In this document: positions 3,742 to 25,208 of the stretch, piece after piece | How the letters are laid out: each line of letters opens with the position of its first letter | How positions within the stretch are numbered: position 1 is the first letter of the stretch | Program-made: the position numbers and the translations under genes | Source of the DNA: Longimicrobiales bacterium | Lineage (GTDB): Bacteria; Gemmatimonadota; Gemmatimonadetes; Longimicrobiales; Gaopeijiaceae | Direction: 5' to 3' | DNA length: 32,000 nucleotides | Assembly: GCA_965205315.1 (NCBI GenBank) | Contig: CBDBGW010000002.1 | Span: 440,684-472,683 of the forward strand | Notes under the pieces: model-generated | Told to the model about the DNA's origin: nothing | Seen by the model: the letters and a program-made list of their open reading frames with translations, nothing else | The model's database searches: none

Positions 3742-4900
3742 GCGGATCCCGCCGAGTAGCCGGGCTCAGCGTCCGCGCCACCAGGGTGGCCGCGCGGATC
3801 TTCGCCCTGGCGATCGTTCGTCCCCAGGCACCGATGGGGTGTCGCCCTGAGACCGGCAGGCGTTGAGAGGCCGCCAGATCCGGCTCCAGCACCTGGCGGC
3901 GAAAGGAGCTGATGACCGCAGCCGACCGGAAGACGGCGACGACCTCGGCCAGGAAGCCGTGGTAGCTCATCAGGTCGAAGTTGGAGGAGCCGGTGATGAG
4001 CGCCCGGTCGTCGATCAGCATGCACTTCATGTGGATCATCCCGCCCCCGTACAGCCAGAGGTGGACGGGGGAGCGCGCGGCCTCGGCGAGGAGGTGCCTC
4101 TGCAGGTACGCCTTGTTGTTGTCGCGCGGGGTGACGAAGTGGACCTCGACCCCGCGATCCGCCGCGGCTGTGAGACGCCCCGTGAAGGGAGGGGACACGT
4201 AGGGGCCGATCATGTGAATCGAGTGCTCTGCCCGGTCGATGATGCCGAGGAGCCCGCCGTAGAGTTCGTGGTTGCCCTTTCCGGGTAGGTTGTGCAGCTC
4301 CAGCTCCAGCTCGGGAAAGGACCTCGACGACGCCTGCGACCGCCCTTCCCAGGAGTGCAGGAAGTCGCCCTTGAGGAAGCGGGTCACCTCAGCGTGCTCG
4401 ATGCGCACCATCAGGTCGTGCCACGCGAAGTTGTGCTCCGAGAAGTTGAGGCCGCCCACGTAGGCCACGCGGTCGTCGAAGAGGACGAGCTTCTTGTGGT
4501 CGCGTCTGAGGATCCTTCCTCCCAGGAGGCCGAGGGGACGCCCAAAGCGCACGCCGATCCCGGCGGCGCTCAGGGTCCGCACGAGGCGCCGGGTGCTGCG
4601 GACCTCGTCGCGGAGCGCGCGGTCGAAGAGGTTGTGCGGCGCCGCAAGCCAGCGGTCGTTGTGGTTGGCGCGGGTGTAGGAGTCGATCAGCAGCCTGATG
4701 TCCGGAGCCCGAGCCGCGAGCAGCTCCTTCGCAAGCTGCTCGCCCACCTGGTCCCCCTCGAAGGAGTAGGTCTGGATGTACACGCAGTCGCGGGCGCTGG
4801 CCAGATCGGCCCGGATCGCGCGCCAGATTGCGGGCGAGTCCACCAGGATCGTGACCCTCGGACGATCTCTCACCGACGGTGGTCGTGTCTCAGAGAGCAC
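3731..4900 (-). CDS. Phospholipase D / cardiolipin-synthase-like protein with two HKD motifs
   Basis: Two HxKxxxxD motifs are present: RDHKKLVLFDDRVAYVGGLNFS and IHMKCMLIDDRALITGSSNFD. The GTG start at 4900 overlaps the dedA-like stop by 11 nt (GTGCTCTCTGA). Confidence 0.85.
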   Translation of the reverse strand: MLSETRPPSVRDRPRVTILVDSPAIWRAIRADLASARDCVYIQTYSFEGDQVGEQLAKELLAARAPDIRLLIDSYTRANHNDRWLAAPHNLFDRALRDEVRSTRRLVRTLSAAGIGVRFGRPLGLLGGRILRRDHKKLVLFDDRVAYVGGLNFSEHNFAWHDLMVRIEHAEVTRFLKGDFLHSWEGRSQASSRSFPELELELHNLPGKGNHELYGGLLGIIDRAEHSIHMIGPYVSPPFTGRLTAAADRGVEVHFVTPRDNNKAYLQRHLLAEAARSPVHLWLYGGGMIHMKCMLIDDRALITGSSNFDLMSYHGFLAEVVAVFRSAAVISSFRRQVLEPDLAASQRLPVSGRHPIGAWGRTIARAKIRAATLVARTLSPATRRDPHGR

Positions 4901-5354
4901 CGTGGATGGCGCTGCCCGCCGCCACCGCCGAATAGCCGATCACGGCGAAGCGCACGCCCCTGCCCACCAGCCCCACGATGATGAACCAGGTGAGGCTCAT
5001 GCGCAGCGCCCCTGCAGCGAGGGAGATGAGGTAGAAGGGCGGGAGACCCACGATGGCGCTGACGAGGACGAGGGTGAATCCCGCCCCTTCGAGCCTCTTC
5101 GTCCTCTGGGAAGCGGCTTCCAGACGCTCCCGAGCCTTCGCCGGGAGTCGTTCCGGGAGCCAACGCGCCCCGGCGTAGAGTCCGACCTTGGCCACAATCT
5201 GCCCGGCCGAGCAGGCGACGATGACCGGCGCGACGAGTGCCGTCGGCGCGGCGACGGCAGCCCCCGCGACAAGCACCTCGGCGTTCACGAAGGGTACCAG
5301 TCCGCTCAGGACGGACATCACGAACGCCGATGTCAGTATTGCGATTTCCGCCAT
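4890..5354 (-). CDS. DedA/YqaA-type (VTT domain) small membrane protein
   Basis: ORF 4890..5402 trimmed to the ATG at 5354 (MAEIAILTSAFVMSVLSGLVPFVNAEVLV...), preceded by AGGGAGAG. About 154 aa with 4 predicted TM segments and an overall YqaA-like layout. Family call is from pattern only. Confidence 0.6.
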   Translation of the reverse strand: MAEIAILTSAFVMSVLSGLVPFVNAEVLVAGAAVAAPTALVAPVIVACSAGQIVAKVGLYAGARWLPERLPAKARERLEAASQRTKRLEGAGFTLVLVSAIVGLPPFYLISLAAGALRMSLTWFIIVGLVGRGVRFAVIGYSAVAAGSAIHGAL

Positions 5355-5430
5355 GGCGTGTCTCTCCCTGGTCCTCGGCCCGCCGGACGCCGCGAACACC
5401 ATACCGGCAAGCCCGCGCCGATGCCACCGC

Positions 5431-5665
5431 TAGCAGCCCGTGGACAGAACTCCCACGGCATTCGAGCGGCGGAGCATCCCCGCTGAACCGCTTCGCTCTG
5501 CGTTGCTCCTCGGACCAATAGCGCTGCGGCTATTGGCCCTTCGTCGCGCCTTGCCAGCGGCGCGCTTCGCCGCTCTCCTTGCTCGCGCGAGTCTGCCCAC
5601 GGACTGCCGCAGCCCGTGGACAGAACTCCCACGGCAGGAGCAGCGCTGCATCCCCGCAGGCCCGT
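5431..5665 (+). repeat. GC-rich intergenic repeat family, copy a (head duplicated)
   Basis: The identical 27-mer CAGCCCGTGGACAGAACTCCCACGGCA occurs at 5434-5460 and 5610-5636; it contains the hairpin CCGTGG-N9-CCACGG. Each copy is followed by a GCATCCCCGC segment. An internal hairpin CCAATAGC-GCTGCG-GCTATTGG lies at 5515-5536. The body matches copies at 12.1 kb and 15.7 kb in inverse orientation. Confidence 0.75.
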
Positions 5666-5688
5666 GTCGCTCAATATGTAATGTGAAG

Positions 5689-5717
5689 ATTACATAATGG
5701 CAACTGTAGTATACATT
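5689..5717 (+). promoter_or_regulatory. Promoter-like box ATTACA-N17-TACATT overlapping the palindrome ATGTAAT-N6-ATTACAT (5676-5695)
   Basis: AT-rich island in otherwise GC-rich DNA, 171 nt upstream of the Rieske oxygenase start. The same TTNACA-N17-TACAYN arrangement recurs at 15797-15825(-), 20453-20481(-) and 23337-23365(+). Confidence 0.45.
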
Positions 5718-5888
5718 CTGTTGCCGCCCCGGTGGCCACGCCCCGTCGTCGAATTACCTTTTCGTACTCCGGGAACCCACAATAGGGGGGTGCTTCCTCA
5801 TGAAGTCCGCAACCTCCGGGCCACTGGGCTGCACGACACACGGGATCGGTCCCGTTTCCGACCTCTTCAAGCACAGAGAGGCGCGTAG

Positions 5889-6962
5889 ATGAGTACTGGC
5901 GTCGATGAACGGTCATCGCACCGTCGCGCAAAGCTCCCCCCGTACCCCGAGGGGTGGTACTTCGTCACCGACCGCAGGACGCTGGCGAAGAGGAAGCTGA
6001 TCGAGAAGAGATGGATGGGCGAGGAGATCGTCGCTTGGGTGGACGGGGAGGGCCGCGTCTGCGTAGCCGGGGCCTACTGCCCGCATCTGGGGTCGCACAT
6101 GGGGCCGACGGTCGGTGGCCTGGTGCGCGACGGCTGCCTGGTATGCCCCTTCCACGGCTTCACCTTCGACACCACCGGCAGGTGTGTCGCCGTGCCGCAC
6201 GCTCCGGCCCCCAGGGCCGCGAAGCTGGAGGTCTACCCCACCCACGAGATCCTCGGCATGGTCTTCGCCTGGTGGGGGAGCGAGGGAAGGGTGCCGCAGT
6301 GGGAGCTGCCCGAGTCGCCTCCCACTGGCGCGGAGTGGGGCGGCCTGCGCTCGACGACGCTGCGATTCAGGGGCCACCCCCAGGAGACTACCGAGAACTC
6401 GGTGGATGTGGAGCACCTGGCGTACACCCACGGGTATCACGACGTGGAGATCACGGCCCCCCTGAAGATCGATGGCGCCTACCTGAAGAGCTGCTTCGAC
6501 TTCAGGTACGTGCACAGGATCGCCGGGGTGTTCAGGGTCGTCGCCGAAGTCTCTGCCGTCACCCACGTCCACGGGCTCGGGTACTCCTTCGTCGAGATCC
6601 ACGAGAAGTCGATCGGCATGGATGCGAGGCTGTGGGTCCTGGCGACGCCGGTGGGTGACACCCAGCTCGAGCTGACGCTCGTCACCCAGGTGCGGGAGAT
6701 CCGCAGGCCGGGCAAGTTCCTCGCAGGACTCGGCTTCCTGCCGGTGCCCTGGCGCCACAGGGTGATGACCCCCTTCTACCTGAGACAGGAGAAGCACTTC
6801 GTCATGCAGGACGTGGTCATCTGGGAGCACAAGCGCTACACCGTCCCGCCCCGGCTCTCCCGCGCAGACGGCCCGATCGGGAAGTTCCGCCTCTACTGCC
6901 GGCAGTTCTACCCCGAGCTGCCGTTGCGGGCTGGGAAGGTGCGGCGAACGGGCACGGCCTGA
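5889..6962 (+). CDS. Rieske [2Fe-2S] non-heme-iron oxygenase, KshA/Neverland(DAF-36)-like
   Basis: Rieske motif CPHLGSH..(17 aa)..CPFHG. Mononuclear iron motif ENSVDVEHLAYTHG (E-N-x2-D-x2-H-x4-H). N-terminal PYPEGWYFV..EIVAW pattern typical of steroid-type Rieske oxygenases. The SD GAGAGG lies 7 nt before the ATG. Confidence 0.8.
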   Translation: MSTGVDERSSHRRAKLPPYPEGWYFVTDRRTLAKRKLIEKRWMGEEIVAWVDGEGRVCVAGAYCPHLGSHMGPTVGGLVRDGCLVCPFHGFTFDTTGRCVAVPHAPAPRAAKLEVYPTHEILGMVFAWWGSEGRVPQWELPESPPTGAEWGGLRSTTLRFRGHPQETTENSVDVEHLAYTHGYHDVEITAPLKIDGAYLKSCFDFRYVHRIAGVFRVVAEVSAVTHVHGLGYSFVEIHEKSIGMDARLWVLATPVGDTQLELTLVTQVREIRRPGKFLAGLGFLPVPWRHRVMTPFYLRQEKHFVMQDVVIWEHKRYTVPPRLSRADGPIGKFRLYCRQFYPELPLRAGKVRRTGTA

Positions 6963-7045
6963 TTTCGCCAACAGTCGCCGCGGAGATGGCCGCACGGGGA
7001 CGAAGTCCGGACGGCATTGGGCACGCTCGTCGTCCACGGACTTCG

Positions 7046-8410
7046 ATGCCCCGCCGCGTTGCCATAGTCGGAGGCGGAATCTCCGGGCTGGGGGCGGCCT
7101 GGGGGCTCAGTCGCCATCCCGACCGCTTCGACTTCGCGCTCTACGAGGCCCAGGACCGGATCGGCGGGAACGCGGTCACCGCCGACATGCCGCAGGACGG
7201 CGGCGGCTCGATCCCCTTCGACATCTCGGTCACCGCCTGCATTCCGTCGGTCTACCACCACATAGTGATTCTCCTGGAGGAGTTCGGGATCGACCTGCTC
7301 GAGACCCGTTTCAGCTACAGCGTGAGGTACCGCGGCCAGCTCTACGCCCACGACTTCGACTCCGAGATCAGGGAGCAGCTTCAGCCCGAGATCGAGCGGT
7401 TCCAGCGGGTCCTGGCGCATCTGCACCGCTTCGGTTGGCTGACGCGCTCCCGCTCGAAGCTCCTGAACGCGCTCAACCCCTTCAACTACGTCAGCATGGG
7501 GACGGTCCTGAATCTGGCTGGGCTCTCCGGGGACTTCAGGTATAAGGTCCTGAAGCCGATGTTCGTCAACTTCCTGATGGCGACCAACGTCTTCGACATG
7601 CCTGCGGCGCTCTTCTCGCGGTACCTCGAGTTCTTCGACATCGAGTCCGCCACCCCGATGCGGACCTGGGACCGGGGAACGAGGCGCATCTACGAGAATC
7701 TCACCGCCGGCTTCCGAGAACGTATCCACCTGGGCCGCCCCGTCCGAAAGGTCTACCGGTACGGCACCCACGTGGTCGTCGAGGACGAGGAGGGGACGCA
7801 GGAGCGCTTCGACGATGTCGTTTTCGCCTGCAACGCCAACCAGACGCTCATGATCCTGGACCGCCCCACCCTGCTGGAGCGCTACATCCTCTCGTCCGTC
7901 CGCTACGAGAGCGAGCTCCACAACCACACCGTCGTCCACTCCGACGCCTCGGTCCTCCCCGACAACGAGGTCAGGCCGCTCGCGACGCGGAGCAATCACA
8001 TCGAGCAGTACGGAGCGCGCCCGGACAACTACGAGATCACCTACATCATGCACAACCAGCAGCCGTGGGTAGGCGATTCGGACAAGCCGTGCCTCGTCAC
8101 CTACAACCCGATCACTCGGATCGACGAGGAGAAGGTGGTCGCGCGACGGTGGTTCCAGCACATCGTCCACGACGTGCGGCAGATGGCGTGGCTCGTCCCC
8201 CTCTTCCGCTTCATCCAGGGTAGGCGGCGGAGCTGGCACTGCGGTGCCCACACCCTTGTGAACAGCCAGGAGACGTGCTTCGTCTCAGGGCTCGCGGCCG
8301 CCACCCAGCTGGGCGCTGACTATCCATTTGACAACGAGGAGGCGCGCCGTACCTTTAACCACTACGGGAGCATCCTGCACGGCTGGCGGTTCAGGAAGGC
8401 GCGGGGTTGA
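7046..8410 (+). CDS. FAD/NAD(P)-binding oxidoreductase (COG2907 / amine-oxidase-like flavoprotein)
   Basis: ORF 6986..8410 trimmed to the ATG at 7046 so that the dinucleotide-binding motif is N-terminal: MPRRVAIVGGGISGLGAAWGLS...YEAQDRIGGN. Start choice is uncertain. Confidence 0.7.
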   Translation: MPRRVAIVGGGISGLGAAWGLSRHPDRFDFALYEAQDRIGGNAVTADMPQDGGGSIPFDISVTACIPSVYHHIVILLEEFGIDLLETRFSYSVRYRGQLYAHDFDSEIREQLQPEIERFQRVLAHLHRFGWLTRSRSKLLNALNPFNYVSMGTVLNLAGLSGDFRYKVLKPMFVNFLMATNVFDMPAALFSRYLEFFDIESATPMRTWDRGTRRIYENLTAGFRERIHLGRPVRKVYRYGTHVVVEDEEGTQERFDDVVFACNANQTLMILDRPTLLERYILSSVRYESELHNHTVVHSDASVLPDNEVRPLATRSNHIEQYGARPDNYEITYIMHNQQPWVGDSDKPCLVTYNPITRIDEEKVVARRWFQHIVHDVRQMAWLVPLFRFIQGRRRSWHCGAHTLVNSQETCFVSGLAAATQLGADYPFDNEEARRTFNHYGSILHGWRFRKARG

Positions 8411-8445
8411 AGGGCGCTTCTATCCGGATCCGGCGATGGCACCTC

Positions 8446-8530
8446 TAGCAGTCCGTGGATAAACTCAGGCGAGCACCGAGAGGGGCGCTGCGCCAGCGGT
8501 CCGTGGACGGGCCCGGACGAGCACCGAGAC
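8446..8530 (+). repeat. GC-rich intergenic repeat family, two tandem degenerate heads
   Basis: TAGCAGTCCGTGGATAAACTCAGGCGAGCACCGAGA is followed by CGGTCCGTGGACGGGCCCGGACGAGCACCGAGA. The first head is about 80% identical to TAGCAGCCCGTGGACAGAACTC at 5431. It lies between convergent genes. Confidence 0.6.
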
Positions 8531-8540
8531 CGGGCATCCT

Positions 8541-9608
8541 TCACAGCCCGGCGGCGGAACGCTTGTTTTCGGGCCGTAGGGGTTTCCGGGCCAGGAAACA
8601 ATACAGCGGCGTGAAGATGCCCGTCCTGCCGCCCGTGACGTACGCCTCCGCGGTTCGATCAAGGAGTCGGACGACCTCTGCCGACCCGTTCGGAAAGAGC
8701 CGCAGCACCTCGGCCAACTTAGACGCCGCGATGAAGGCCTTGCGGCCCCAGGGAAGCCTGCGCACCGCGTTCCCCAATGTCCCGTGGCGACTCTCCATGG
8801 GTTGATACCAGGGCGTGGAGGGTCCTTCCCGGACCTCCCAGTCGCTAGCCTCCACAACTTGGAATCCCGCCCCTTCGAGAGCGCGATTCACCTCCCCGAA
8901 GGTGGCGATTTCGTGCAGCGCAATGCCGCGCATGAGGTCCCGCCTGATGGCCCGGTGCTGGCCGTCCCGCGGATCGAACCGATCCGTCAGGCACATTTCC
9001 TGACCCCAGAACAGGGCACCCGGCTTCAGTACGCGAAATATCTCCGCGAAAGCCCGTTGCTTGTCCTGCGCATGGCACGTCGACTCGATGGCGTAACCCC
9101 TGTCGAAGGAGTCGGCCTCGATGGCGCTCATGTCCGCGAAGCTGCACTTCCTGAGATCGGTCATGTGCTCCAGCCCCGCCTCGGCGTTCAATTTCCTGGC
9201 CTTGGCCAGCTGGATCCCATTGATGTTGATTCCCACGACCCTGACACGCCCCTCACGAACGACACGGCGCATGGGACCGCCGATTCCACAACCGACATCT
9301 ACCACCTTCATGCCCTGTCGCAGCTCCAACCTCGAGATCATCGCCCGCTGGTGCCGGACCTTGGACTCCTCCAGGCTTTCGTTGGGCGTGAGCGGCGCAA
9401 AATGCAGGGATTCACCCCATCCCCACACCATGAATTCGTTGCAAAGCTCGTAGTAGTCCCTGACCGTTTCCGCGTGGTCGTAGGTGCCCGCGCCTGTGCC
9501 CTCCGACACCGCGCGGTCAAGCCAGCCGTCAAAGTGCCGGACTCGACGCGCGACGCCCGATCCCGCGTGCGCATTTCTCAGCGCCTTCGCCAGTTCCACC
9601 AGTCGCAT
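8541..9608 (-). CDS. Sterol C-24 methyltransferase (Erg6/SMT) family SAM-dependent methyltransferase
   Basis: Collinear with yeast Erg6 as recalled. Region I: FMVWGWGESLHFAP (Erg6 FYEYGWGSSFHFS). SAM motif: VVDVGCGIGGP (VLDVGCGVGGP). Region III: YAIESTCHA (YAIEATCHA). Also VLKPGA and C-terminal IFTPLYCFLARKP (LFTPMMLFVARKP). ORF 8541..9809 is trimmed to the ATG at 9608 because the longer form overlaps the P450 gene by 187 nt. The trimmed start lies 14 nt after the P450 stop. Confidence 0.85.
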   Translation of the reverse strand: MRLVELAKALRNAHAGSGVARRVRHFDGWLDRAVSEGTGAGTYDHAETVRDYYELCNEFMVWGWGESLHFAPLTPNESLEESKVRHQRAMISRLELRQGMKVVDVGCGIGGPMRRVVREGRVRVVGININGIQLAKARKLNAEAGLEHMTDLRKCSFADMSAIEADSFDRGYAIESTCHAQDKQRAFAEIFRVLKPGALFWGQEMCLTDRFDPRDGQHRAIRRDLMRGIALHEIATFGEVNRALEGAGFQVVEASDWEVREGPSTPWYQPMESRHGTLGNAVRRLPWGRKAFIAASKLAEVLRLFPNGSAEVVRLLDRTAEAYVTGGRTGIFTPLYCFLARKPLRPENKRSAAGL

Positions 9609-9622
9609 TCTGGTTAGGCCTG

Positions 9623-11701
9623 CTAGGGCAGCTCCCGCCTCTGCTCTACGATGCGAAACCTCAGCTTCTTGCTGGGCTTCAGCGACGGAAACGGATTGAG
9701 TCGGAGCTTCCGGACGTACTTCGCCGGCCACACCTCGATCTTGAAATAGTGCGCCAGCATCAGCAAGTTGACCGCCAGATGCATCTCCATCCACCGGGTG
9801 CCGAGACACCTGTGCGTACCCAGCCCGTACGGGGCGAACCCCATGCTGTGATGCTCACGACGCGATGGCAGGAAGCGGTCGATGTCGAACTTGTAGGGCT
9901 CGGAAAAGACTTCGCTCATATAGTGCGTGGCGGTCATGGCGATGTGGATCCGTTCCCCCACGGGCAGCTCGTAGTTCCCGATCGTGCAGGTATTCATCAC
10001 GTTGCGAACAGACATGGGCACGATCGGGTACATGCGCAGGCATTCCATGAGGAAGCGGTGCGTCACGTCGAGATTGGCGGGGGTCAGGTCCTCCTTCGCG
10101 GGGTCATCCTCGGCAAACAGGGCATCCGCTTCGGACCGGATCCTGTCGTAGAGGGCCGGCTGCGAAGCCATGGCGTAGACCAGGAGGCTGAAAGTGTCGC
10201 CGAGATAAACGCTGGCAATCAGGGCCGCGGAAAAAGAAAAGAGCAGGTTGGACTCCGGGAGAAACTGCGGGTCGCTGGCGTGCAGGCTGAGGTAGTCGTC
10301 CACCAGGTTTCGCGGCCGATTCGCCCGCTGGGCGGGTGTATGGACCCTCAAGACCCGCTCCATCAGCGTGTCCAGGGCAGCTGCCCGGCGTTTCATGCCG
10401 GGGGTATTCAGCGTGAACCTGGGCAGGGTCCTGGCGATGTGCACGCTGAGGGCCCGTTCCTTATAGACCATCAGGTCGTCCATGAGATCCTGCGTGTCGA
10501 CGCCGATGAACAGCGGCGACAGCTGCGCGTTCACCATTGCCCGGCTCATGGACGTGGCGCGGTAGGAATCCCCAACCGTCAGGGTCGACATGTACGCGCG
10601 CCCCCTGTCGTAGAGCTGGTCCAGCTGCCCTGCCAGCCTCGCGCGGGAATAGGACGGCGACAGGAACTTGCGAAGACGGAAGTGGTCGGCCCCGTCCAGG
10701 GCGGGGAGGACACCGGCCGCGCCGTAGACCTTCTCAAAGTCGGCGAAGTAGTCCCTAGTTCTCAGGTACCTGCGGCCACGCTTGTGCACCCATTCATTCG
10801 TCTCGAGTCCGGCCAGGAAGATCATGCGCTCCGAAAAGGGAGGACGGACCTGGAACACCGGGCCGTATTCCTCCGCGAGGTTCCCGAAGAGCGCGTTCAG
10901 GTTGCCGTCTCGGACATGCGGGTTGCGCAGCAGCCTGGAGAGCGGAACCGTGGGGATTTGCTTGGCGAAGGCAGCATGTCCTCGGATCGGGCCGGCGAAG
11001 CTCTCGGAGACCGCATCGGCTATGGACCGGCCGATCAGGTCCAACTGACAGATGAATCCTATGCGCTCCTCCGCCGCTTCATCAAGTTCGAAAATCAAGC
11101 GAAAGACATCGCAGGTGTTGACGAGGCACACGATGACGACGTCTCTCGGCTCGGGAATCTCGTCGGTGAAGATCACGTTGCCGATGCGCGCCTTGACGAA
11201 CTGGTCGTTCGTGCCTTCCTCGGACATCCCGTACCGTTGCCCATGCGTGATAAAGGGAGCCAGCGTCCAGAATTCGCCCTCGTGGTGTTGGAGGATGTTC
11301 CGTTCAACCAGACGCTCCAAAGTCAGGTCGACGATCGACTCCGCGCGGGGGGCGAGCCGTTCGATCCAGTACCGGGCATTGTGTTGGCCTGGTTCGTCCG
11401 CGATCTCCTTCAGGATGGGGTCCAGGACGGGATCGCCCGTTTCGGTCCGGTCCACCACGTACAGGGATGTCAGGTCCGAGTCGAGCCGCGACCGGAAGGA
11501 GAGTTCCGCCAGCACTCCGCCGACGACGGCGCAGTTCAGCCGCCAGCCGGGTACCTGGTGGAAGTACCCTCCCTTCTCGTCGATAAGCATGAGGATGAGC
11601 TCGTCGGTTAGGCTCAGGTACTCGGCCTTCAAGCTCTCCACTGTGTCATTCATCGGTTCGCTCCTTGCCGCGGTCGAGACGCTCATTCCCACCGTATTCA
11701 T
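9623..11701 (-). CDS. Fusion protein: N-terminal GPP34/GOLPH3-like domain (about aa 25-235) plus C-terminal cytochrome P450 (about aa 245-692)
   Basis: GPP34-like part: LTDELILMLIDEKGGYF..LNCAVVGGVLAELSFRSRL..VVDRTETGDPVLDPILKEIAD..ARYWIERLAPRAESIVDLTLERLVERNIL. P450 part: I-helix-like LGDTFS, ExxR (ECLR), PYKFDIDRF, and the heme loop FAPYGLGTHRCLG with Cys632 at nt 9806-9808. It is a single uninterrupted 692-codon ORF. GGAGG lies 3 nt before the ATG at 11701. Confidence 0.8.
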   Translation of the reverse strand: MNTVGMSVSTAARSEPMNDTVESLKAEYLSLTDELILMLIDEKGGYFHQVPGWRLNCAVVGGVLAELSFRSRLDSDLTSLYVVDRTETGDPVLDPILKEIADEPGQHNARYWIERLAPRAESIVDLTLERLVERNILQHHEGEFWTLAPFITHGQRYGMSEEGTNDQFVKARIGNVIFTDEIPEPRDVVIVCLVNTCDVFRLIFELDEAAEERIGFICQLDLIGRSIADAVSESFAGPIRGHAAFAKQIPTVPLSRLLRNPHVRDGNLNALFGNLAEEYGPVFQVRPPFSERMIFLAGLETNEWVHKRGRRYLRTRDYFADFEKVYGAAGVLPALDGADHFRLRKFLSPSYSRARLAGQLDQLYDRGRAYMSTLTVGDSYRATSMSRAMVNAQLSPLFIGVDTQDLMDDLMVYKERALSVHIARTLPRFTLNTPGMKRRAAALDTLMERVLRVHTPAQRANRPRNLVDDYLSLHASDPQFLPESNLLFSFSAALIASVYLGDTFSLLVYAMASQPALYDRIRSEADALFAEDDPAKEDLTPANLDVTHRFLMECLRMYPIVPMSVRNVMNTCTIGNYELPVGERIHIAMTATHYMSEVFSEPYKFDIDRFLPSRREHHSMGFAPYGLGTHRCLGTRWMEMHLAVNLLMLAHYFKIEVWPAKYVRKLRLNPFPSLKPSKKLRFRIVEQRRELP

Positions 11702-11759
11702 GAACCTCCGGGCCGAAGGTCATTTGCTTGACCAAAATTGAGGGGCCGAAAGACCTCCC

Positions 11760-12146
11760 GCAACCCCCAAGGGCGTTCGCGAGGCGACTGGGGGCGGTAC
11801 GGTCGTGGAAAAAGCGGCGATTCGAGTCCGGGGGAAGTAGTTTGTCGGTGCCCGGAGACGCCTCGGCATCGTTTCGGCGCCGGTGCTCGGGGAAGCGGTA
11901 GGCGCGGCGATGCGCCCGCGCCAGCCAGACGCCGTGCAGGGTCGCGAGTCCGCGCGAGCATGTGCCGGTGCGCCGAAGCGCCTACGGCGGTCATCGTGAT
12001 CCGGTGCCCGGAGACGGTGAACCGCGCTGCGGTGCGAAGGAAGCGTTCGCGGCGCGCCCGAAGCCCCAGCCGGGCCCGGTTATGCGCTCCAGCACGGATG
12101 CAGCGCCCCTCGAATGCCGTCACGGTTGCTTCCACGGGCTACTAGG
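11760..12146 (-). repeat. GC-rich intergenic repeat family, copy c (expanded), filling the RND-P450 intergenic gap
   Basis: The reverse complement of 12085-12146 reads CTAGTAGCCCGTGGAAGCAACCGTGACGGCATTCGAGGGGCGCTGCATCCGTGCTGG. This is about 80% identical over ~60 nt to 5430-5490. Further body matches exist (GGCGCTTCGGCGC...TGCTCGCGCGGACTC versus 5560-5595). No credible ORF lies in this region. Confidence 0.6.
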
Positions 12147-12153
12147 GCGGGGG

Positions 12154-15100
12154 CTATCCGGCGCTCGCGGTCGAAGGACGCCGTGACGGCGTCAGGTGCA
12201 GATGTAACGCGCATAGCGCCGGAACAACCATCATGAGTATAGCCGTGGTGAAGATGATGCCACAACCGAGCGACGCGGCGAACGGTATCAGGAACTGGGC
12301 CTGAATGGCGCGCTCCAGGATCAGCGGCGTGAAGCCTAGGAACGTGGTCAGGGAAGTGAGCATGATCGGACGAAAGCGCCCCTTGGCACCCTCGACGATC
12401 GCGGTTCTCGGCGGGACGCCTTCCCTGAGTTTCTGATCGATGAAATCGATCATGACCAGGGAGTCGTTCACCACCACACCGCTGAGACCGAAGATCCCCA
12501 TGAAGGAAATGGCGCTTAGCGCTACTCCCAGGATCCAGTGGCCCAGGATCACGCCGATGAACCCGAAGGGGATCACGGCCATGATGATGAACGGCTTGGT
12601 GTATGAACGGAGAGGGATGGCGAGGAGCGCAAAGATCAGGATCAGGGCGATCACGAACCCGCGCTTCAGGGCGTCGATGGACTCCAGTTGTTGCTGCTGT
12701 TCGCCCCCGAAGGTGTATGTTAGGTCCGGGTGCTCCGCCGTCAGATCCGCAAGGATCGAACCGGCCAGAATCTCGTTGGCTTCGTCGCCCGAGATCACCG
12801 AGGCGTCCACGTCGGCGGTGACTGTGACGACGCGGTGGCCGTCCCTGCGCCGCAGCGCAGACGGCGACACGCCCATGCCCAGCGAGGCCACACCGATGAT
12901 CGGCACCTTGTCCCCGCCCGGCGTACGGAGCAGGTAGCCTTCGATATCGGTGATCGAGTTCCGCTCTTCCGTGGGCAGCCGAACATAGGCTCGTACCTCT
13001 TCGCGGCCGCGCTGCACCCGGACGGCCTCTGCGCCGAAGAACGCGGCTCTCGCCTGTCCGGCCAGATCTTGCACGGTGAGGCCGAGGGTCCTTGCTTCGG
13101 GCCGCAACTCCAGCTGAACTTCCGGGATGCCCGGGACATGATCCGACCGTATGTCGTAGACGCCTCCCAACCTGCGGAGTCCGTCGACCACCGAGTCGGC
13201 GATCAGGGCGAGGCGCTCGGGGTCCGGATGGGACAGTACGGCCTCGACCGGATTCCCCAGGGTGAAGATCTCGCCGCTGAAGGTGATGCCGCGCACATAC
13301 GGCGGCACACCCACCTCCTCCCGCCACGCCTGCACGACCTCTCCGGTGGAGATCCGTCTCTGCTGCGCAGCGAGGAGTTTGAATTCGATGGTGGCGATAT
13401 TGGCCTGCGGATTGAGGGTGGGCTGCGGGTTGAGTCCGCCTTCGATTCTCGATCCCAGCCCCACGGTCACCGTGACACCCGCCAGCAGCGGTGGCGCGTC
13501 TTCAGGCCGGCTGCGAGAGAGTCGTTCGATGACCCGGCGGCCCGCAGCCTCCAGCTCCCGCGCCACTTCGTACGTTCTCTGAGCGGTGGTCCCGTCGGGC
13601 ATCTCCAGCACGGCCGTCGCGAGATCACCCTCCACATCGTCGGCCAGCGTGATGGGGACGATTCCCGCAGGCAACAGGGAGATGCTCAGCACGAGCATTC
13701 CGACGGCCCCCGACATCGTCACCCCGGGCCGGGCCGTGGCAAACCGCAGGGCCCGGTCCAGGGGCCCCTGCACGAACCGCTGCAACTGGAGATCGACACG
13801 ACTCTGGAGTCCCGAAAAGAACCGGTCGAAGGCACTGCCCGGCACCCACTCCGGACCGGGCAGGTGGGACAGGTGGTTGGGCAGGACAAACAGCGACTCC
13901 ACCAACGAAACCAGCAGCATGGCGATTATGATGATCGGCAGAGCCCGCCATACGTCACCGACGCCGCCCGGGATGAACAGCAACGGGACGAAGGCCACCG
14001 CCGAAGTAAGGACTGCGAACGTCAACGGCACCTTGATCCGCCGGACGCCGCGTATCGCGGCCGCGACCCCGGGGGTTCCGCGACTGCGTTCGCTTTGAAT
14101 GCACTCGCCTACCACTATGGCGTCGTCAACGATGATCCCGATGGCGAGGACAAAGGAGAAGAGGCTGATGGTGTTGATCGCCATGTCGAGTGCCATCATG
14201 ACGGCGAGGGCGCCCAGGCCCGAAACGGCGAGGCCCACGGCAACCCACAGGGCAAGCCGCACCTGAAGAAACAGGCTGAGGGCGACCAACACCAGCAACA
14301 GACCCAGAATCCCGTTCTTCAGAAGGAGATCGGCGCGTTCCTTGTAGGCCTGGGATTCGTCGTTCCAGATGGTGATGCCGACCCCGTCGGGTAGGGCCGG
14401 GATCACCTCGTTCGCCAGGTGCTCGCTAACCGTCGTAGCCACATCCATCACCTGCTCGCCACCGGCCCTGTAGACCTCGACGAATACGGCGGGCTGGTTC
14501 TGGTGACGGACTATGAGGTCTGACTCCTGGAACCCGTCGCGCACCTCGGCGATGTCGCCGAGGCGCACCAGCGTGCCGTCGCGGCCGCTGAGAAGGACGA
14601 TCTCCTCGAAGTCCTGCTGGTCGTAGTTCTGTCCGAGCGTACGCACTCGAACCTGGGACTGCCGGGTATCGATGCTGCCGGCGGACAGGTCGAGCGAACT
14701 GCGGCGGATCGCGCCCGCAACGTCGGTAAGCGTGAGTCCCAGGGCACTCAGCCGGTGAAGCGGCACCTCGATGGAGATCTCGTAGTTCCGCACCCCGCTG
14801 ACCTCGACCTGGGAGACGGAGGGCAACGCGGTAAGGTCGTCCTCGATCCGGTGCGCCAGTTCCTTCAGCGACCGCTCGGAGATGTCGCCGTGGACGATGA
14901 GCCGAATCATGCTGAAGCGGTTGTCCATCTCGTGGAACCGGGGTCGTTCGGCACCGGCCGGAAAGGACTGGACACGATTGACGGCGGATTCTATGTCGTC
15001 CAATGCCCGATCCATGTCCGTACGGGAATCCATCTGGACCCGCACGGAGGCTATGCCCGGAGCCGCTACGGACTTGACCGCCTTGACGTCATCGAGCCCG

Positions 15101-15360
15101 CTGACCTGGTCCTCGATCTTGACGACGATCGACTCCTCGATCTCCTCCGGCGTGGCCCCGGGATAGGCCATCGAGACTTCGATGTGGTAGAAGGGGGTGA
15201 TGGGCCAGGCTTCCCGCTCGAGGCCGGTCAGGGACAGGAGTCCGGCCGCAACGATGCCCACCATCAGGAGATTGGCCGCAATGCCATTGTCGGCCATATA
15301 GGCGAGCGGGCCGGACCGCTCGCGGCGGTCACCCGGTTCGGGACCCCCGTCGGGATTCAT
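12154..15360 (-). CDS. AcrB/HAE-type RND efflux transporter permease
   Basis: 1068-aa ORF with RND architecture: an N-terminal TM (IAANLLMVGIVAAGLLSL), two large periplasmic loops and two 5-6 TM bundles (e.g. FSFVLAIGIIVDDAIVVGE, GLSGVVVNDSLVMIDF). The ATG at 15358-15360 overlaps the stop of the upstream remnant ORF (ATGA). Confidence 0.9.
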   Translation of the reverse strand: MNPDGGPEPGDRRERSGPLAYMADNGIAANLLMVGIVAAGLLSLTGLEREAWPITPFYHIEVSMAYPGATPEEIEESIVVKIEDQVSGLDDVKAVKSVAAPGIASVRVQMDSRTDMDRALDDIESAVNRVQSFPAGAERPRFHEMDNRFSMIRLIVHGDISERSLKELAHRIEDDLTALPSVSQVEVSGVRNYEISIEVPLHRLSALGLTLTDVAGAIRRSSLDLSAGSIDTRQSQVRVRTLGQNYDQQDFEEIVLLSGRDGTLVRLGDIAEVRDGFQESDLIVRHQNQPAVFVEVYRAGGEQVMDVATTVSEHLANEVIPALPDGVGITIWNDESQAYKERADLLLKNGILGLLLVLVALSLFLQVRLALWVAVGLAVSGLGALAVMMALDMAINTISLFSFVLAIGIIVDDAIVVGECIQSERSRGTPGVAAAIRGVRRIKVPLTFAVLTSAVAFVPLLFIPGGVGDVWRALPIIIIAMLLVSLVESLFVLPNHLSHLPGPEWVPGSAFDRFFSGLQSRVDLQLQRFVQGPLDRALRFATARPGVTMSGAVGMLVLSISLLPAGIVPITLADDVEGDLATAVLEMPDGTTAQRTYEVARELEAAGRRVIERLSRSRPEDAPPLLAGVTVTVGLGSRIEGGLNPQPTLNPQANIATIEFKLLAAQQRRISTGEVVQAWREEVGVPPYVRGITFSGEIFTLGNPVEAVLSHPDPERLALIADSVVDGLRRLGGVYDIRSDHVPGIPEVQLELRPEARTLGLTVQDLAGQARAAFFGAEAVRVQRGREEVRAYVRLPTEERNSITDIEGYLLRTPGGDKVPIIGVASLGMGVSPSALRRRDGHRVVTVTADVDASVISGDEANEILAGSILADLTAEHPDLTYTFGGEQQQQLESIDALKRGFVIALILIFALLAIPLRSYTKPFIIMAVIPFGFIGVILGHWILGVALSAISFMGIFGLSGVVVNDSLVMIDFIDQKLREGVPPRTAIVEGAKGRFRPIMLTSLTTFLGFTPLILERAIQAQFLIPFAASLGCGIIFTTAILMMVVPALCALHLHLTPSRRPSTASAG

Positions 15361-15659
15361 CGCACCGGGTCAGTCTGGACGCGCATCCCTTCGGCGGCGC
15401 ACTGAAGTTGTCCGGTGATCACCGCCTGGCCGCCTCGCAGGGCGCTGGGAGCAGGTGCACGGAGACGATGATCACGACGCCAATTCGGGGGAGCGTCGGC
15501 CCAGCCTCGACCTTCCGGCTCCGGCGCCAGGACGCGCAAGGGAGCTACGGTCGCCGCGATCCCGAGGTCGATAGTGCCGACTAACGGCGAGGCTGCTGTT
15601 GCGCATGACAGTTCACTCCCCGGAGGTCGACGTACCCTACCGAAACTCCACCCCTCCAC
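15357..15659 (-). pseudogene. Possible decayed remnant of the RND periplasmic adaptor (MFP) gene, C-terminal end only
   Basis: The 100-codon ORF ends ..SALRGGQAVITGQLQCAAEGMRVQTD, resembling MFP C-termini (SGL..GD.VI..G...L..G..V), and overlaps the RND start by ATGA. An adjacent frame reads RKVEAGPTLPRIGVVIIVS just upstream, suggesting a frameshift. Only about 440 nt separate the RND start from the promoter box, too short for a full adaptor of about 350-400 aa. Confidence 0.35.
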
Positions 15660-15699
15660 TCGATTGTGGCGGGACCGACATCTGGCGTCAACCTAACCG

Positions 15700-15796
15700 A
15701 GAGCGGTGAGGTGCCGGGCTGGCAAGGCGCGACGAAAGGGGAGGAGCGGGGCTATTTGCCCGAGGAGCAACGCAGAGCGAAGCGTGGGAGCCACCG
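15700..15796 (-). repeat. GC-rich intergenic repeat family, copy d (body only, inverted relative to copy a)
   Basis: The reverse complement reads CCCACGCTTCGCTCTGCGTTGCTCCTCGGGCAAATAGCC...CCTTTCGTCGCGCCTTGCCAGC. It matches 5452-5560 (CGCTTCGCTCTGCGTTGCTCCTCGGACCAATAGC...CCCTTCGTCGCGCCTTGCCAGC). Confidence 0.7.
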
Positions 15797-15825
15797 AATG
15801 TATACTGCGCTTGACATAATGTAAC
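15797..15825 (-). promoter_or_regulatory. Promoter-like box GTTACA-N17-TACATT (minus strand) facing the adaptor remnant and RND gene; palindrome ATGTAA-N8-TTACAT at 15819-15838
   Basis: On the minus strand this reads GTTACAttatgtcaagcgcagtaTACATT, closely similar to ATTACAtaatggcaactgtagtaTACATT at 5689. The plus strand also reads TTGACA-N17-TACATC (15811-15839), but no plus-strand gene lies downstream. Confidence 0.4.
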
Positions 15826-16024
15826 GTTGTCTTTACATCGAGAAACGATGAAGCGGAGTGGCCAGCCTGGAGGCATCGCCGCTCGAATGGCGGGGGGTCG
15901 TCTTGTCCGCGGGCCGCCGGCGGGAGGGGTGGGAAGCCCGCCGGGAGGTCGCGCTATGGACTCCCAGTGCGGGGGGCGGTGTGGGAGGTCAGCTCGCGCA
16001 CGGCGAGTCGTCCGATAAGGGGCT

Positions 16025-16288
16025 TCACCCGGGCTCGGTCTTCCGTTTCTTCCCCGCGAACGTCCCCCACAGGATGACGGCGAGGAAAGCTACGGCCGCG
16101 AACGCGGCGACGATCCACACCGGCGAGAGCACCCACCACCACGACCAGTCGATGTGACCGGTGAGCTTCAGCGCGACAAAGAGCAGGGTGAGCAGCGTGA
16201 TGGCGTTCGGACTTTCCACGCTTCTTTCCCAACGCGGGCGCCGCGCTCTGGTACGACGGGGTTCCGGAGTGTCCTGTGCTTCTGTCAT
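16025..16288 (-). CDS. Small two-TM membrane protein (87 aa)
   Basis: ORF 16025..16357 trimmed to the ATG at 16288: MTEAQDTPEPRR...ITLLTLLFVALKLTGHIDWSWWWVLSPVWIVAAFAAVAFLAVILWG. Two clear hydrophobic helices follow a basic N-terminus. Function unknown. Confidence 0.55.
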   Translation of the reverse strand: MTEAQDTPEPRRTRARRPRWERSVESPNAITLLTLLFVALKLTGHIDWSWWWVLSPVWIVAAFAAVAFLAVILWGTFAGKKRKTEPG

Positions 16289-16451
16289 TCGTCGTATCCT
16301 CTGGTGAGCTGTGGAGTGGGCTGCCGTCGCCGATAGTGGGTCGCAAGTATCATACATGACCCTTCCGGGCTGGAGGGCTTTCGCAAGCGAGGCGGGGTGA
16401 CGGTGTGGCGGCGGTGCGAGCGGGCCTCCCGAATGGAAACGGTCCTCCGCG

Positions 16452-16495
16452 GCCGAGGCGCGCTGAGCTGGCCAGCCAGCTCAGCGCGCCTCGGC
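16452..16495. terminator. Perfect 20-bp stem / 4-nt loop palindrome overlapping the VKOR stop codon
   Basis: GCCGAGGCGCGCTGAGCTGG-CCAG-CCAGCTCAGCGCGCCTCGGC. No U-tract on either side, so intrinsic-terminator function is uncertain. Confidence 0.4.
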
Positions 16496-16912
16496 GGAGC
16501 GAGCGCCGCGAAGGCACCTGGACTCAGGCCACGCGCACCCGAATATCGCCGCCATGACGATTGCCGAGGCCACGCAGTACCTGCACCACGCGCCGATCAC
16601 CACGGCCTCCAGGTAGGTCAGGTAGGCGCTGAAGAGCACCCCCACCAGCGCCCCGGCGAAGATCAGGAGAGCGACGGCTCTGGACCCCGCCAGGCCCTCG
16701 CCGAGACCGAGGAGCGCCAGAACGAGCAGCGCTAGGTACCCGGCGACTCCGATCGCCGATACTGGCACCGGGCCGATGGTGGCGTACTCCGACGACTGCA
16801 CGGTGGCGCACTCGCCGGACCCGCACGGCGGCGGCGGCGTCCACCCCAAGGCGGCAGAGAGGAGATAGAAGGCCAGGAGGGTGCCAACCAGGGAGAGGAG
16901 CGCGATCGCCAT
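16481..16912 (-). CDS. Vitamin K epoxide reductase (VKOR) family protein
   Basis: ORF trimmed to the ATG at 16912 (MAIALLSLVGTLLAFYLL...), downstream of the DsbA stop. Loop cysteines CGSGEC and the active-site CRYC lie in the last TM. Four TM helices. Adjacent to a DsbA-like gene. Confidence 0.75.
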   Translation of the reverse strand: MAIALLSLVGTLLAFYLLSAALGWTPPPPCGSGECATVQSSEYATIGPVPVSAIGVAGYLALLVLALLGLGEGLAGSRAVALLIFAGALVGVLFSAYLTYLEAVVIGAWCRYCVASAIVMAAIFGCAWPESRCLRGARSAEAR

Positions 16913-17000
16913 GCGGTTTCTGGGAGGCGAGCCCCCTGTACCGGAGCGGGGGGCGTGCTCCAGCTCTCCGGACGCCGATCCGGCCTCCGGACCGCCAGCG

Positions 17001-17684
17001 CTACTCAAGTCCCGCCAGGGAATCGATCGCCATCTGAATGTCCAGGAAGCTGGCACCCCCCAGCTGCAGCAGCGGCGGACCGCCGCGGTAGGCGAATAGG
17101 GCGGGCGTGCCGCTGACCCGGAGCTCCTGCCCCAGCCTCATGTTCGCGCTCACCACCTCTGCGTGGCGGTCGCTCCGAAGGCAATCCCGAAATGTGCTCC
17201 GGTCCATCTCCAGCTCGTCGGCCAGCTCCCTTAGATGGCCAACGGCGCTCCCGAGCGGCGACCAATCCTCCTGACTCGCGAACACCAGGTCGTGATACTC
17301 GAAGTAGAGGCCCTGGTCGCCGGCGCAGCGAGCGGCCCGAGCCGCCAGGAAGGCGTGCGGATGGGGGACCGTGAGCGGAAAGTCGTAGTACTCCAGCTTG
17401 GCGATTCCGGTCGATATGTACGCATCCGCCAGCTGCGGCTTGACGAAGAGGCCGAAGTGCCTGCACGCGGGACACTGGTAGTCGCCGAACTCCATGATGG
17501 TGACGGGAGCGGCCGTATCGCCGTACACGCCAGCCGGACGTGCCAGCTCTATCAGCTCCTGCTGGTCCATCTCGCCGAGCTCGACGGGGAGGACAGCACC
17601 TCCGCCCCCGCCGCGCAGCGCATAGTAGACGATCGCCGCACCCACTACCGCCACGCCACCGAATACCAGGTAGAATGTCCTCAC
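17001..17684 (-). CDS. DsbA-family thiol:disulfide oxidoreductase (membrane-anchored/secreted)
   Basis: N-terminal TM/signal segment (FYLVFGGVAVVGAAIVYYAL) and the thioredoxin-fold motif EFGDYQCPACRHF (CPAC). GTG start at 17684. Confidence 0.85.
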   Translation of the reverse strand: MRTFYLVFGGVAVVGAAIVYYALRGGGGGAVLPVELGEMDQQELIELARPAGVYGDTAAPVTIMEFGDYQCPACRHFGLFVKPQLADAYISTGIAKLEYYDFPLTVPHPHAFLAARAARCAGDQGLYFEYHDLVFASQEDWSPLGSAVGHLRELADELEMDRSTFRDCLRSDRHAEVVSANMRLGQELRVSGTPALFAYRGGPPLLQLGGASFLDIQMAIDSLAGLE

Positions 17685-25196: not shown

Positions 25197-25208
25197 CCGT
25201 CACCTCGT

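Follow-up and report, generated by a model that had tools for sequence, protein, structure and literature searches.

A GOLPH3-fold domain fused to a cytochrome P450 in a Longimicrobiales bacterium and the conserved gene cassette that surrounds it

What might a bacterial cytochrome P450 gain from an N-terminal GPP34 domain, the fold of the eukaryotic protein GOLPH3? This question is raised by one gene in a stretch of 32,000 nucleotides from a Longimicrobiales bacterium of the Gemmatimonadota (GenBank assembly GCA_965205315.1, contig CBDBGW010000002.1, positions 440,684 to 472,683), the whole of which is called the window below. An earlier note on this DNA, made from the sequence, had described the gene as a single GPP34–P450 open reading frame (ORF) of an architecture not known to its author as characterised, and had suggested that the GPP34 module may tether the P450 to a membrane lipid substrate or deliver it there.

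The architecture itself is no new find: a catalogue published in 2025 treats it, under the name GPP34_L, as a hallmark of sponge symbionts. GPP34_L joins GPP34 to a cytochrome P450 in 656 of 663 long forms; these proteins were reported to be exclusive to sponge symbionts and absent in free-living relatives, to occur in 92.6% of 54 genomes of sponge-associated Gemmatimonadota and, from metatranscriptomes of Aplysina aerophoba, to be expressed (Ferreira et al. 2025, Microbiome 13:4, PMC11706023). The sole published hypothesis is that GPP34 proteins are secreted effectors that bind host phosphatidylinositol 4-phosphate (PI4P) and block phagosome maturation; flanking genes were looked at in that work for the short GPP34 form only, and the words sterol and methyltransferase occur nowhere in it. 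The window protein is a member of GPP34_L: it holds both Pfam domains in one ORF, has the class length of about 660–680 amino acids (aa), shows no structural difference, and has a 99% identical copy in the metagenome-assembled genome (MAG) COS4_bin_2; the published catalogue probably includes the very MAG of the window. The remark that the architecture had not been characterised therefore holds for its biochemistry and fails for its bioinformatic description. GPP34 and GPP34–P450 go unmentioned in the papers on sponge-microbiome sterol methyltransferases and steroid clusters (PMC10070321, PMC9531527), and we found no work in the searchable literature that connects GPP34 with sterols in sponge symbionts. 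Relative to that literature, four features described below appear to be new: a conserved cassette that crosses phyla, the swap of its transporter, the missing PI4P pocket and an atypical I-helix.

The sequence evidence argues against the effector hypothesis and offers instead a testable reading, an intracellular, membrane-docked P450 in a mobile cassette of sterol-type tailoring and export genes, which bacteria of at least nine phyla share in sponge holobionts. If true, it would bear on who makes or remodels sponge sterols, and hence on the sterane biomarkers of early animals; on the role of the GOLPH3 fold before its eukaryotic recruitment to the Golgi; and on how soluble bacterial oxygenases reach membrane-embedded substrates. 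With 4–5 genes the cassette is small, so its reconstitution in a heterologous host is feasible.

The fusion gene and its two domains

The longest ORF runs without interruption through 692 codons on the minus strand (9623..11701). Its GC content is 0.83 at third and 0.41 at second codon positions, a pattern typical of true genes in a window of 66% GC, indicating that the frame is coding; an overlapping plus-strand ORF of 620 codons is a high-GC artefact. The ATG at 11701 opens the longest frame, and the true start is probably that of Met17, because homologues of 673–677 aa begin at the equivalent methionine and a Shine–Dalgarno-like box lies 7 nt before it (Table 1). Residues are counted below from Met17 as residue 1, except where the ORF is named. 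Pfam assigns PF05719 (GPP34) to ORF residues 31–233 (98.4 bits against a cut-off of 29.1, profile positions 1–200 of 201) and PF00067 (p450) to ORF residues 258–666 (122.9 bits, cut-off 22.8), so that the two domains indeed share one uninterrupted frame, GPP34 on its N-terminal third and the P450 on the remainder. Look-up of the exact window-protein sequence found no record.

An assembly join or a frameshift is ruled out, since the two-domain protein recurs in many independent genomes. A search of 5.8 billion proteins returned more than 120 clusters (at 90% identity) that carry both domains and are 68–95% identical to the window protein; a profile of 26 family members returned for the most part these clusters again. 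In a scan of one genome per GTDB species with an eight-sequence alignment, at least 565 genomes, each representing a species, encoded a relative, and many of these are MAG chromosomes of 3–6 Mb in a single contig. Over 87 orthologues, the mean identity to the window protein is 68% for the GPP34 domain, 73% for the P450 and 50% for the linker between them. The fusion is real and under selection, as follows from this wide recurrence, the roughly equal conservation of both domains and the reported expression.

The N-terminal domain has the fold of GOLPH3. A bacterial GPP34 profile run against all PDB sequences matched human GOLPH3 (E 2e-17) and yeast Vps74 (E 4e-16). Since Foldseek matches of the full-length model were dominated by P450s, residues 1–232 were modelled separately with AlphaFold2 (predicted local distance difference test, pLDDT, 80.3) and compared with 350,000 PDB chains. 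The only significant matches were GOLPH3 (9qpq_B, template-modelling (TM) score 0.71/0.68, E 3.6e-8) and Vps74, the next match having E 0.34, and the fold assignment is secure, in agreement with the earlier note. The N-terminal part is thus not a divergent extension of the P450, for Pfam, profile and fold all match GOLPH3/Vps74 only. Nor is it a fused redox partner: it holds no cofactor domain and matches no Fe–S or flavin family. With GOLPH3 and Vps74 (PDB 3kn1, 9qpq, 2zih) the domain shares the fold (TM 0.6–0.7, profile E ~1e-17), the hairpin segment and the build of a soluble peripheral module of about 200 aa; it differs from GOLPH3 in lacking the N-terminal basic COPI motif and in being bacterial, fused to an enzyme and, by prediction, cytoplasmic.

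A further difference concerns the PI4P pocket, which in GOLPH3 consists of W81, R90, R171 and R174 (PMC13408441). In the profile alignment these residues correspond to Pro35, Val44, Glu105 and Val108 of the window protein, and the same columns in the 87 orthologues hold P (85/87), V/A/I/T, E/D and I/V, with a basic residue at none. Given these identities, we reject PI4P binding through a GOLPH3-type pocket; a tether of the phosphoinositide type, which the comparison with GOLPH3 in the earlier note would suggest, is unlikely, all four pocket residues being replaced by non-basic ones. The beta-hairpin, in contrast to the pocket, is kept. Its strands (residues 121–124 and 128–131, assigned by DSSP in both models) align with GOLPH3 residues ~188–197; H124, G126 and T130 are invariant among the orthologues, and F128, W129 and L131 occur in 86, 84 and 82 of the 87. 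The linker that follows falls below pLDDT 50 at residues 223–228. No signal peptide, hydrophobic N-terminus or transmembrane (TM) segment was found in the window protein.

The remainder of the protein is a complete P450 in profile, fold and haem motifs (full-length model pLDDT 85.9, predicted TM score, pTM, 0.78). All motifs named by the earlier note were found: ExxR as E537-C-L-R540, the PERF-like motif as F589-D-I-D-R-F594 and the haem loop as F606-APYGLGTHR-C616-LG, with key residues invariant in two family alignments. Foldseek places the domain at TMt ~0.8 from CYP184A1, Methylococcus capsulatus CYP51 and P450 BM3 at 15–20% identity, and the best PDB sequence match found with phmmer is the Methylococcus CYP51 (65 bits, ~20% identity). 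The nearest solved structures are lipid-oxidising, "eukaryote-like" P450s. In P450 nomenclature the family level lies at about 40% identity or more. Orthology to CYP51 is rejected on these values and on the I-helix, where "AGHHTS" of the M. capsulatus enzyme aligns with "SVYLG-D" and the CYP51 signature AG-H/Q-HTS is missing.

This I-helix is atypical in other respects as well. A480-S481-x-Y483-L484-G485-D486 is invariant, with V (75/87) or A (12/87) at position 482; relative to the "AGLDT" of a second GPP34–P450 subfamily (see below) there is a one-residue deletion, and no conserved Thr follows D486, position 487 being Ala in 45/87 orthologues. The canonical (A/G)Gx(D/E)T acid–alcohol pair, which serves O2 activation in typical monooxygenase P450s, is missing in the subfamily of the window protein, in which Tyr483 is invariant. 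For P450s that lack the conserved Thr, substrate-assisted activation and peroxide-type chemistry are known, and either may apply here.

The functional analogy to eukaryotic sterol P450s drawn in the earlier note is consequently a loose one, as the window P450 is not of the CYP51 type and lacks the O2-activating I-helix motif. The likeness to the microsomal enzymes is conceptual: an N-terminal module sets a lipid-oxidising P450 at the membrane, but the microsomal anchor is a single TM helix, whereas the putative membrane module here is a soluble domain of 200 aa without a TM segment. The CYP51–ferredoxin fusion of M. capsulatus (PDB 6mcw, 7jj1, 7snm) is a bacterial sterol P450 with an extra fused domain, supplies the best sequence match and is among the top structural matches; its extra domain, however, is C-terminal and a redox partner, that of the window protein N-terminal, non-redox and GOLPH3-fold. 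P450 BM3 (CYP102), a structural neighbour of the haem domain, is also a multi-domain P450, while the domain fused here shows no flavin- or Fe–S-binding features and no reductase gene lies nearby.

The gene cassette and its spread

The fusion gene ends at 9623–9625, 14 nt before the ATG (9608) of the methyltransferase gene downstream, the spacing that the earlier note had given when it called this enzyme Erg6-like. The enzyme matches PF08498 Sterol_MT_C (56.3 bits), methyltransferase domains and the CMAS family (63.8 bits). It aligns end to end with a canonical sterol-methyltransferase-type paralogue (41% identity, 244 bits), as against 48 bits to the cyclopropane-fatty-acid-synthase-like chain 7v6h among PDB matches. 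Where region I was found in adjacent orthologues, it has the sequence MV(F/W/Y)GWG, and region III reads IESTCHA(Q/P), the sterol-methyltransferase reference being IEATCHAP; on these motifs, the cassette enzyme would be a distinct subtype of the sterol methyltransferase family. Beyond it, on the opposite strand, lie a flavin adenine dinucleotide (FAD)-dependent oxidoreductase and a Rieske oxygenase. The best PDB match of the flavoenzyme is LkcE (E 1.3e-29); it probably starts about 20 codons downstream of the ORF start, and its orthologue in the 95% identical locus L005 has 454 aa. The best PDB match of the Rieske protein is KshA, the oxygenase of 3-ketosteroid 9alpha-hydroxylase (E 3.9e-21). 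On the other side of the fusion is an RND transporter gene whose orthologues in other diderms, 80–94% identical, end right at the start of the fusion or overlap with it, the latter being the case for the RND stop in L002.

Table 1. Features of the fusion gene and of the adjoining cassette in the window.
Feature	Position	Strand	Basis
GPP34–P450 fusion gene, 676 aa from Met17, including stop codon	9623..11653	−	ORF, homologue starts, Shine–Dalgarno box, Pfam
AAGGAG, Shine–Dalgarno-like box, 7 nt 5' of the Met17 ATG	11661..11666	−	Read from sequence
GPP34 (GOLPH3/Vps74-fold) domain, residues ~15–217	11003..11611	−	Pfam, profile, AlphaFold2, Foldseek
Beta-hairpin, residues 121–131 (LQHH-EGE-FWTL)	11261..11293	−	Homologous to the GOLPH3 membrane-inserting hairpin
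Inter-domain linker, residues ~218–241, least conserved	10931..11002	−	Model and alignment
Cytochrome P450 domain, residues ~242–650	9704..10930	−	Pfam, Foldseek, phmmer
I-helix without canonical motif, residues 476–496	10166..10228	−	Model helix and alignments
Cys616 codon, proximal haem thiolate ligand	9806..9808	−	Invariant in two alignments
Sterol-methyltransferase-family gene, 355 aa, region-I motif FMVWGWGESLHF	8541..9608	−	Pfam, paralogue identity
FAD amine-oxidase-fold oxidoreductase, LkcE-like	6986..8410	+	Pfam Amino_oxidase, NAD_binding_8
Rieske [2Fe-2S] oxygenase, KshA-type C-terminal domain	5889..6962	+	Pfam Rieske and KshA_C
AcrB-type RND inner-membrane transporter, directly upstream of the fusion	12154..15360	−	Pfam ACR_tran, 522 bits
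MFP remnant, last ~24 codons of a periplasmic adaptor gene	15369..15440	−	blastn, tblastn

Neighbour genes were called in all fetched loci and clustered, and cluster representatives were annotated. The counts given here refer to 63 species-representative loci with full ±10 kb flanks, a partner being scored when it lies within 6 kb of the fusion. The cassette spans at least nine phyla. In diderms its order is (outer-membrane factor, OEP – periplasmic adaptor, MFP –) AcrB-type RND – fusion – sterol-methyltransferase family (– FAD amine-oxidase fold) – Rieske/KshA_C, where parentheses mark optional genes. The Rieske/KshA_C gene is present at 58/63 loci, an RND-superfamily transporter at 54 (33 of the MMPL and 21 of the AcrB type), the cassette-type methyltransferase at 53 and the LkcE-like flavoenzyme at 35; 62 loci have the methyltransferase, the Rieske gene or both, and 50 combine three or all four partner classes. 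As to conservation between phyla, the flavoenzyme is among the most conserved members (74–98% identity, compared with 64–99% for the fusion and 50–98% for the Rieske protein), and RND genes, in the loci that have one, roughly equal the flavoenzyme in this respect.

The transporter type varies with the envelope (L026–L086 compared with L008–L039) while the enzyme core stays constant. AcrB-type RND genes, often accompanied by MFP and OEP, occur in Gemmatimonadota, Latescibacterota, Acidobacteriota and Verrucomicrobiota; in Chloroflexota their place is taken by an MMPL protein of 827 aa that matches Patched-SSD and the Sterol-sensing domain and often comes with an MFS transporter and an LppX/LprG-like lipoprotein. 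A transporter that follows the envelope around an unchanged set of enzymes suggests that a small lipid crosses the membrane. ERG4/ERG24 sterol reductases lie near the fusion in 4 to 6 loci, and a second sterol methyltransferase with canonical motifs, ~41% identical to the cassette enzyme, lies a few kb off in 5 to 7 loci (L026, L027, L033, L039, L043, L067 and L084). Overall, the lipid role that the earlier note had taken from the methyltransferase is strongly reinforced by the identity of that enzyme to the canonical paralogue and by a partner set that recurs across phyla, and the lipid would probably be a sterol.

Known bacterial sterol clusters (Brown et al. 2023, PMC10070321, with SMT and sdmAB; Kelly et al. 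2022, PMC9531527, with ERG24–CYP51–LSS) and the sterol transporter BstABC of M. capsulatus (PMC10942540) serve as the comparison set. Common to them and the cassette are the sterol methyltransferase family, a Rieske protein, an RND-superfamily transporter, the occurrence in sponge bacteria and signs of horizontal transfer. The known clusters, however, centre on the cyclase, CYP51 and C-4 demethylases, none of which the cassette has within 10 kb, and the GPP34–P450, the divergent methyltransferase subtype and the LkcE-like flavoenzyme are found in the cassette only.

Close relatives are labelled Longimicrobiales or Candidatus Palauibacter. At 64–81% identity the fusion also occurs in MAGs labelled Vicinamibacteria, Latescibacterota, Chloroflexota/Dehalococcoidia, Nitrospirales, Opitutales, Rhodothermaceae, Binatia and Alphaproteobacteria; the few named members of the protein clusters are Gemmatimonadota, and it is the genome scan that places like identities in several phyla. 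Identities of this size between phyla point to horizontal transfer, which implies, on sequence grounds, that the fusion and its cassette have spread among phyla in this way. The best locus is the 99% identical one (L007) of "Gemmatimonadetes bacterium isolate COS4_bin_2", where we take COS to stand for the sponge Coscinoderma; the codes COS, RHO, APA and SB06xx in many carrier names presumably denote sponge-microbiome MAG sets. The habitat is therefore that of the catalogued GPP34_L proteins, with Gemmatimonadota one among many phyla. Two further carriers (L025 and L067) bear "Plut_..." names, which we assume to be those of the MAG set of the coral Porites lutea; if so, the GPP34–P450 family is not strictly confined to sponges, contrary to the published statement.

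Proposed function of the cassette and competing explanations

We tentatively propose that the fusion acts in the cytoplasm, docked to the membrane, as a P450 tailoring a sterol-like lipid within a cassette that also transports the product, a proposal to which we lean while stopping just short of calling it probable. The GPP34 domain would be a built-in docking or adaptor module that has lost the PI4P pocket and kept the hairpin surface, and would keep the P450 against the cytoplasmic membrane from the inside, bound to lipid or to the transporter encoded next to it. In that position the P450 would oxidise a sterol-like lipid embedded in the membrane; the sterol-methyltransferase-family enzyme, the KshA-like Rieske protein and the LkcE-like flavoenzyme would methylate or oxidise this lipid further, and the RND-superfamily pump would move the product out, or else take up the substrate. 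The scheme builds on features that the sequence data establish, namely the fusion, its two folds, the replaced PI4P residues, the unusual I-helix and a cassette spread over several phyla. The sterol nature of the substrate, the docking role, the order of the reactions and the direction of transport are what we infer in this scheme.

A cytoplasmic enzyme rather than a secreted binder is argued for by the lack of a signal peptide or TM segment, the intact P450 motifs and, in several genomes, a fusion start that overlaps or touches the RND stop. The sterol reading draws on the sterol-methyltransferase and KshA-type partners, the ERG4/ERG24 reductases, the canonical sterol methyltransferases, the sterol-sensing-domain transporter and the leaning of the P450 towards CYP51. 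As for the GPP34 domain, the tether or delivery role suggested in the earlier note is plausible from the sequence. A generic oxygenase-docking function fits, because GPP34+Rieske fusions exist, rare as they are, and standalone GPP34 genes often stand beside P450 genes (PMC11706023), and because GOLPH3 is itself a membrane-bound adaptor whose acidic groove grips the cytosolic tails of client enzymes (PMC13408441).

A number of observations weigh against this proposal. Region I of the methyltransferase reads F-M-V-(F/W/Y)-G-W-G-E-S-L-H-F in place of the canonical F-Y-E-(Y/F)-G-W-G-x-S-F-H-F, that is, with YE replaced by MV, and some symbiont sterol methyltransferase homologues were inactive on the sterols tested (Brown et al., PMC10070321). 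Neither an oxidosqualene cyclase nor a CYP51 was seen in the ±10 kb around the fusion at the loci inspected. Fatty-acid P450s (CYP184A1 with oleate, BM3) are among the nearest structures of the P450; the MMPL, LppX/LprG-like and MFS genes of Chloroflexota resemble mycobacterial export of non-sterol lipids; and the sterol-sensing-domain matches are weak, at 43 bits, and common to the RND/Patched superfamily as a whole. As to electron supply, a ferredoxin-like ORF is absent within ±10 kb in 80/80 loci, and no reductase family is found among the recurrent neighbour clusters. The turn of the modelled hairpin is acidic (E125-G126-E127), as compared with the FLLF tip of GOLPH3, so that membrane insertion of the hairpin is not assured.

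A serious rival, although in our judgement an unlikely one, keeps the same cassette and assigns it to a non-sterol membrane lipid exported through MMPL/RND, for example mid-chain methyl-branched or oxygenated fatty acids derived from an unsaturated acyl chain, a terpenoid or a polyketide lipid. The CMAS match of the methyltransferase, to a family of cyclopropane and mycolic acid synthases, points in this direction, and its pairing with a flavoenzyme resembles the two-enzyme route to 10-methyl fatty acids; LkcE, the nearest solved relative of that flavoenzyme, belongs to polyketide biosynthesis, and the fatty-acid hydroxylases among the P450 neighbours and the recurrent Chloroflexota export genes would fit as well. 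On the other hand, the methyltransferase carries the sterol-methyltransferase-specific C-terminal domain and is much nearer to its canonical sterol-type paralogue than to 7v6h, the Rieske partner is of the KshA type with KshA as its best solved match, and some loci add ERG4/ERG24 reductases and canonical sterol methyltransferases. The same KshA match, KshA being a hallmark of steroid degradation, could be turned into a scheme of catabolism or detoxification, in which the P450 and the Rieske protein begin the breakdown of sponge sterols and the pump expels intermediates. P450s do start side-chain degradation in actinobacterial cholesterol catabolism, and the carriers live in sterol-rich hosts; we nevertheless hold this scheme to be improbable, since an S-adenosylmethionine (SAM)-dependent enzyme of the sterol methyltransferase family indicates anabolic tailoring, clustering of all neighbours gave no recurrent beta-oxidation, KstD-like or meta-cleavage genes, and the transporters that recur belong to efflux or lipid-export types.

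The remaining explanations concern the GPP34 domain and are likewise less likely. The effector hypothesis, in which the secreted protein binds PI4P on the host phagosome and stops its maturation with the part played by the P450 left open, draws on the reported restriction of the family to sponge symbionts (PMC11706023), on carrier MAG names that fit marine-invertebrate holobionts and on true homology to eukaryotic GOLPH3; moreover, some secretion-system effectors need no Sec signal. The window data run the other way, with the PI4P pocket lost in the window protein and the 87 orthologues, no signal peptide, and a sterol-type neighbourhood kept. The gene is coupled or adjacent to an inner-membrane pump for small molecules and flanked in 62/63 loci by cytoplasmic SAM-, FAD- or Fe–S-dependent enzymes, and neighbour clustering showed no recurrent protein-secretion system genes in the flanks. 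A pure lipid binder would need neither a P450 as conserved as GPP34 nor an intact haem site, and we regard the effector role as very doubtful. GPP34 might instead be a protein–protein adaptor, a regulatory or an oligomerisation module that docks the P450 on a transporter or redox partner. GOLPH3 binds client-enzyme tails through its acidic groove (PMC13408441) and Vps74 tetramers offer a model for oligomerisation; the loss of the pocket beside a nearly invariant hairpin surface, the overlap of fusion start and RND stop in some genomes and the full-length pTM, which suggests a defined domain arrangement, agree with this. Since the transporter family (AcrB type or MMPL) and strand change with phylum while the GPP34 domain stays 64–81% identical, a specific interface with the pump is argued against, and no transporter gene stands beside the second subfamily; this explanation seems to us distinctly unlikely.

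Returning to the membrane-docked P450, its most far-reaching form would make GPP34–P450 the oxidative core of the symbiont pathways that produce unconventional sponge sterols, which we consider rather unlikely as it stands. If true, the cassette and exporter of the first subfamily, that of the window, would yield unusual side-chain-alkylated or oxygenated sterols, and the second subfamily sterols that are hydroxylated and then sulfated or acylated. Some of the sterols credited to the "sponge" would then be made or altered by bacteria and not by the animal, and the GOLPH3-fold domain would represent a novel type of module by which oxygenases dock to sterols or membranes.

The second subfamily, GPP34 diversity and other features of the window

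Alignment of diverse members divides GPP34–P450 into two subfamilies. The second has the canonical I-helix "AGLDT", retains the equivalent of R174 alone among the PI4P-pocket residues, and apparently shares genomes with the first, on the evidence of contigs of identical length. At the five loci looked at (L087–L091) it is not beside the methyltransferase, the Rieske gene or the RND set. A sulfotransferase is adjacent or at most two genes away in 4/5 loci, a membrane O-acyltransferase is present in 2/5, and an EryCIII-like glycosyltransferase and a PhyH dioxygenase in 1/5 each. Judged from these genes, the neighbourhood looks like hydroxylation followed by conjugation.

An exhaustive search with the GPP34 domain only gave 1,580 representatives when clustered at 50% identity. 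They include many full-length fusions at 33–45% identity, standalone forms of ~220 aa and rarer fusions to STAS or MFS; of 52 representatives scanned, four were GPP34+STAS and one GPP34+MFS. Other forms are a 444-aa protein with two GPP34 stretches and proteins of 872 aa and 945 aa (P0271).

In the window, the RND gene is intact and has no upstream MFP or outer-membrane-factor gene, unlike most diderm relatives. A remnant of the MFP gene (Table 1) is recognisable by 84–88% nucleotide identity to the MFP 3' ends of L006, L008, L009 and L012 (blastn) and by 62% identity over 24 aa (tblastn, E 0.001); it lies in 1.1 kb without clear coding signal (15361–16480). MFP and OEP are missing from L005 too, where VKOR and DsbA genes immediately precede RND. 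Between the RND stop and the fusion start, which abut or overlap in many relatives, the window has a non-coding spacer of 500 nt (11654–12153), ~90% conserved in L007 and partly in L005. A promoter and terminator scan of this spacer gave nothing above shuffled expectation, and no Rfam element matched in 5000–18000 of the window. An intergenic repeat of ~60–90 nt with 74–80% identity, which may be a REP- or MITE-like element, occurs at 5427–5577, 5676–5724, 12084–12145 and 15699–15923, and also in L005 and L007.

The cassette is adjoined at 3731–5402 by a PLD-type gene (two HKD motifs, cardiolipin-synthase-like) and a gene for a VTT/DedA-domain membrane protein, both found also in L007 and conserved nowhere else. 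Farther away, a PIN-domain toxin gene (25624–26022) has HTH_3 (XRE-type) regulators nearby at 24837–25199 and 26308–26754. At 30256–31424 there is an IS3-family transposase (HTH_21 and rve integrase core) split over two overlapping frames, as expected for programmed frameshifting. A 728-aa protein with Schlafen/AlbA_2, HATPase_c_4 and TPR domains, of a kind found in defence islands, is encoded at 27530–29716.

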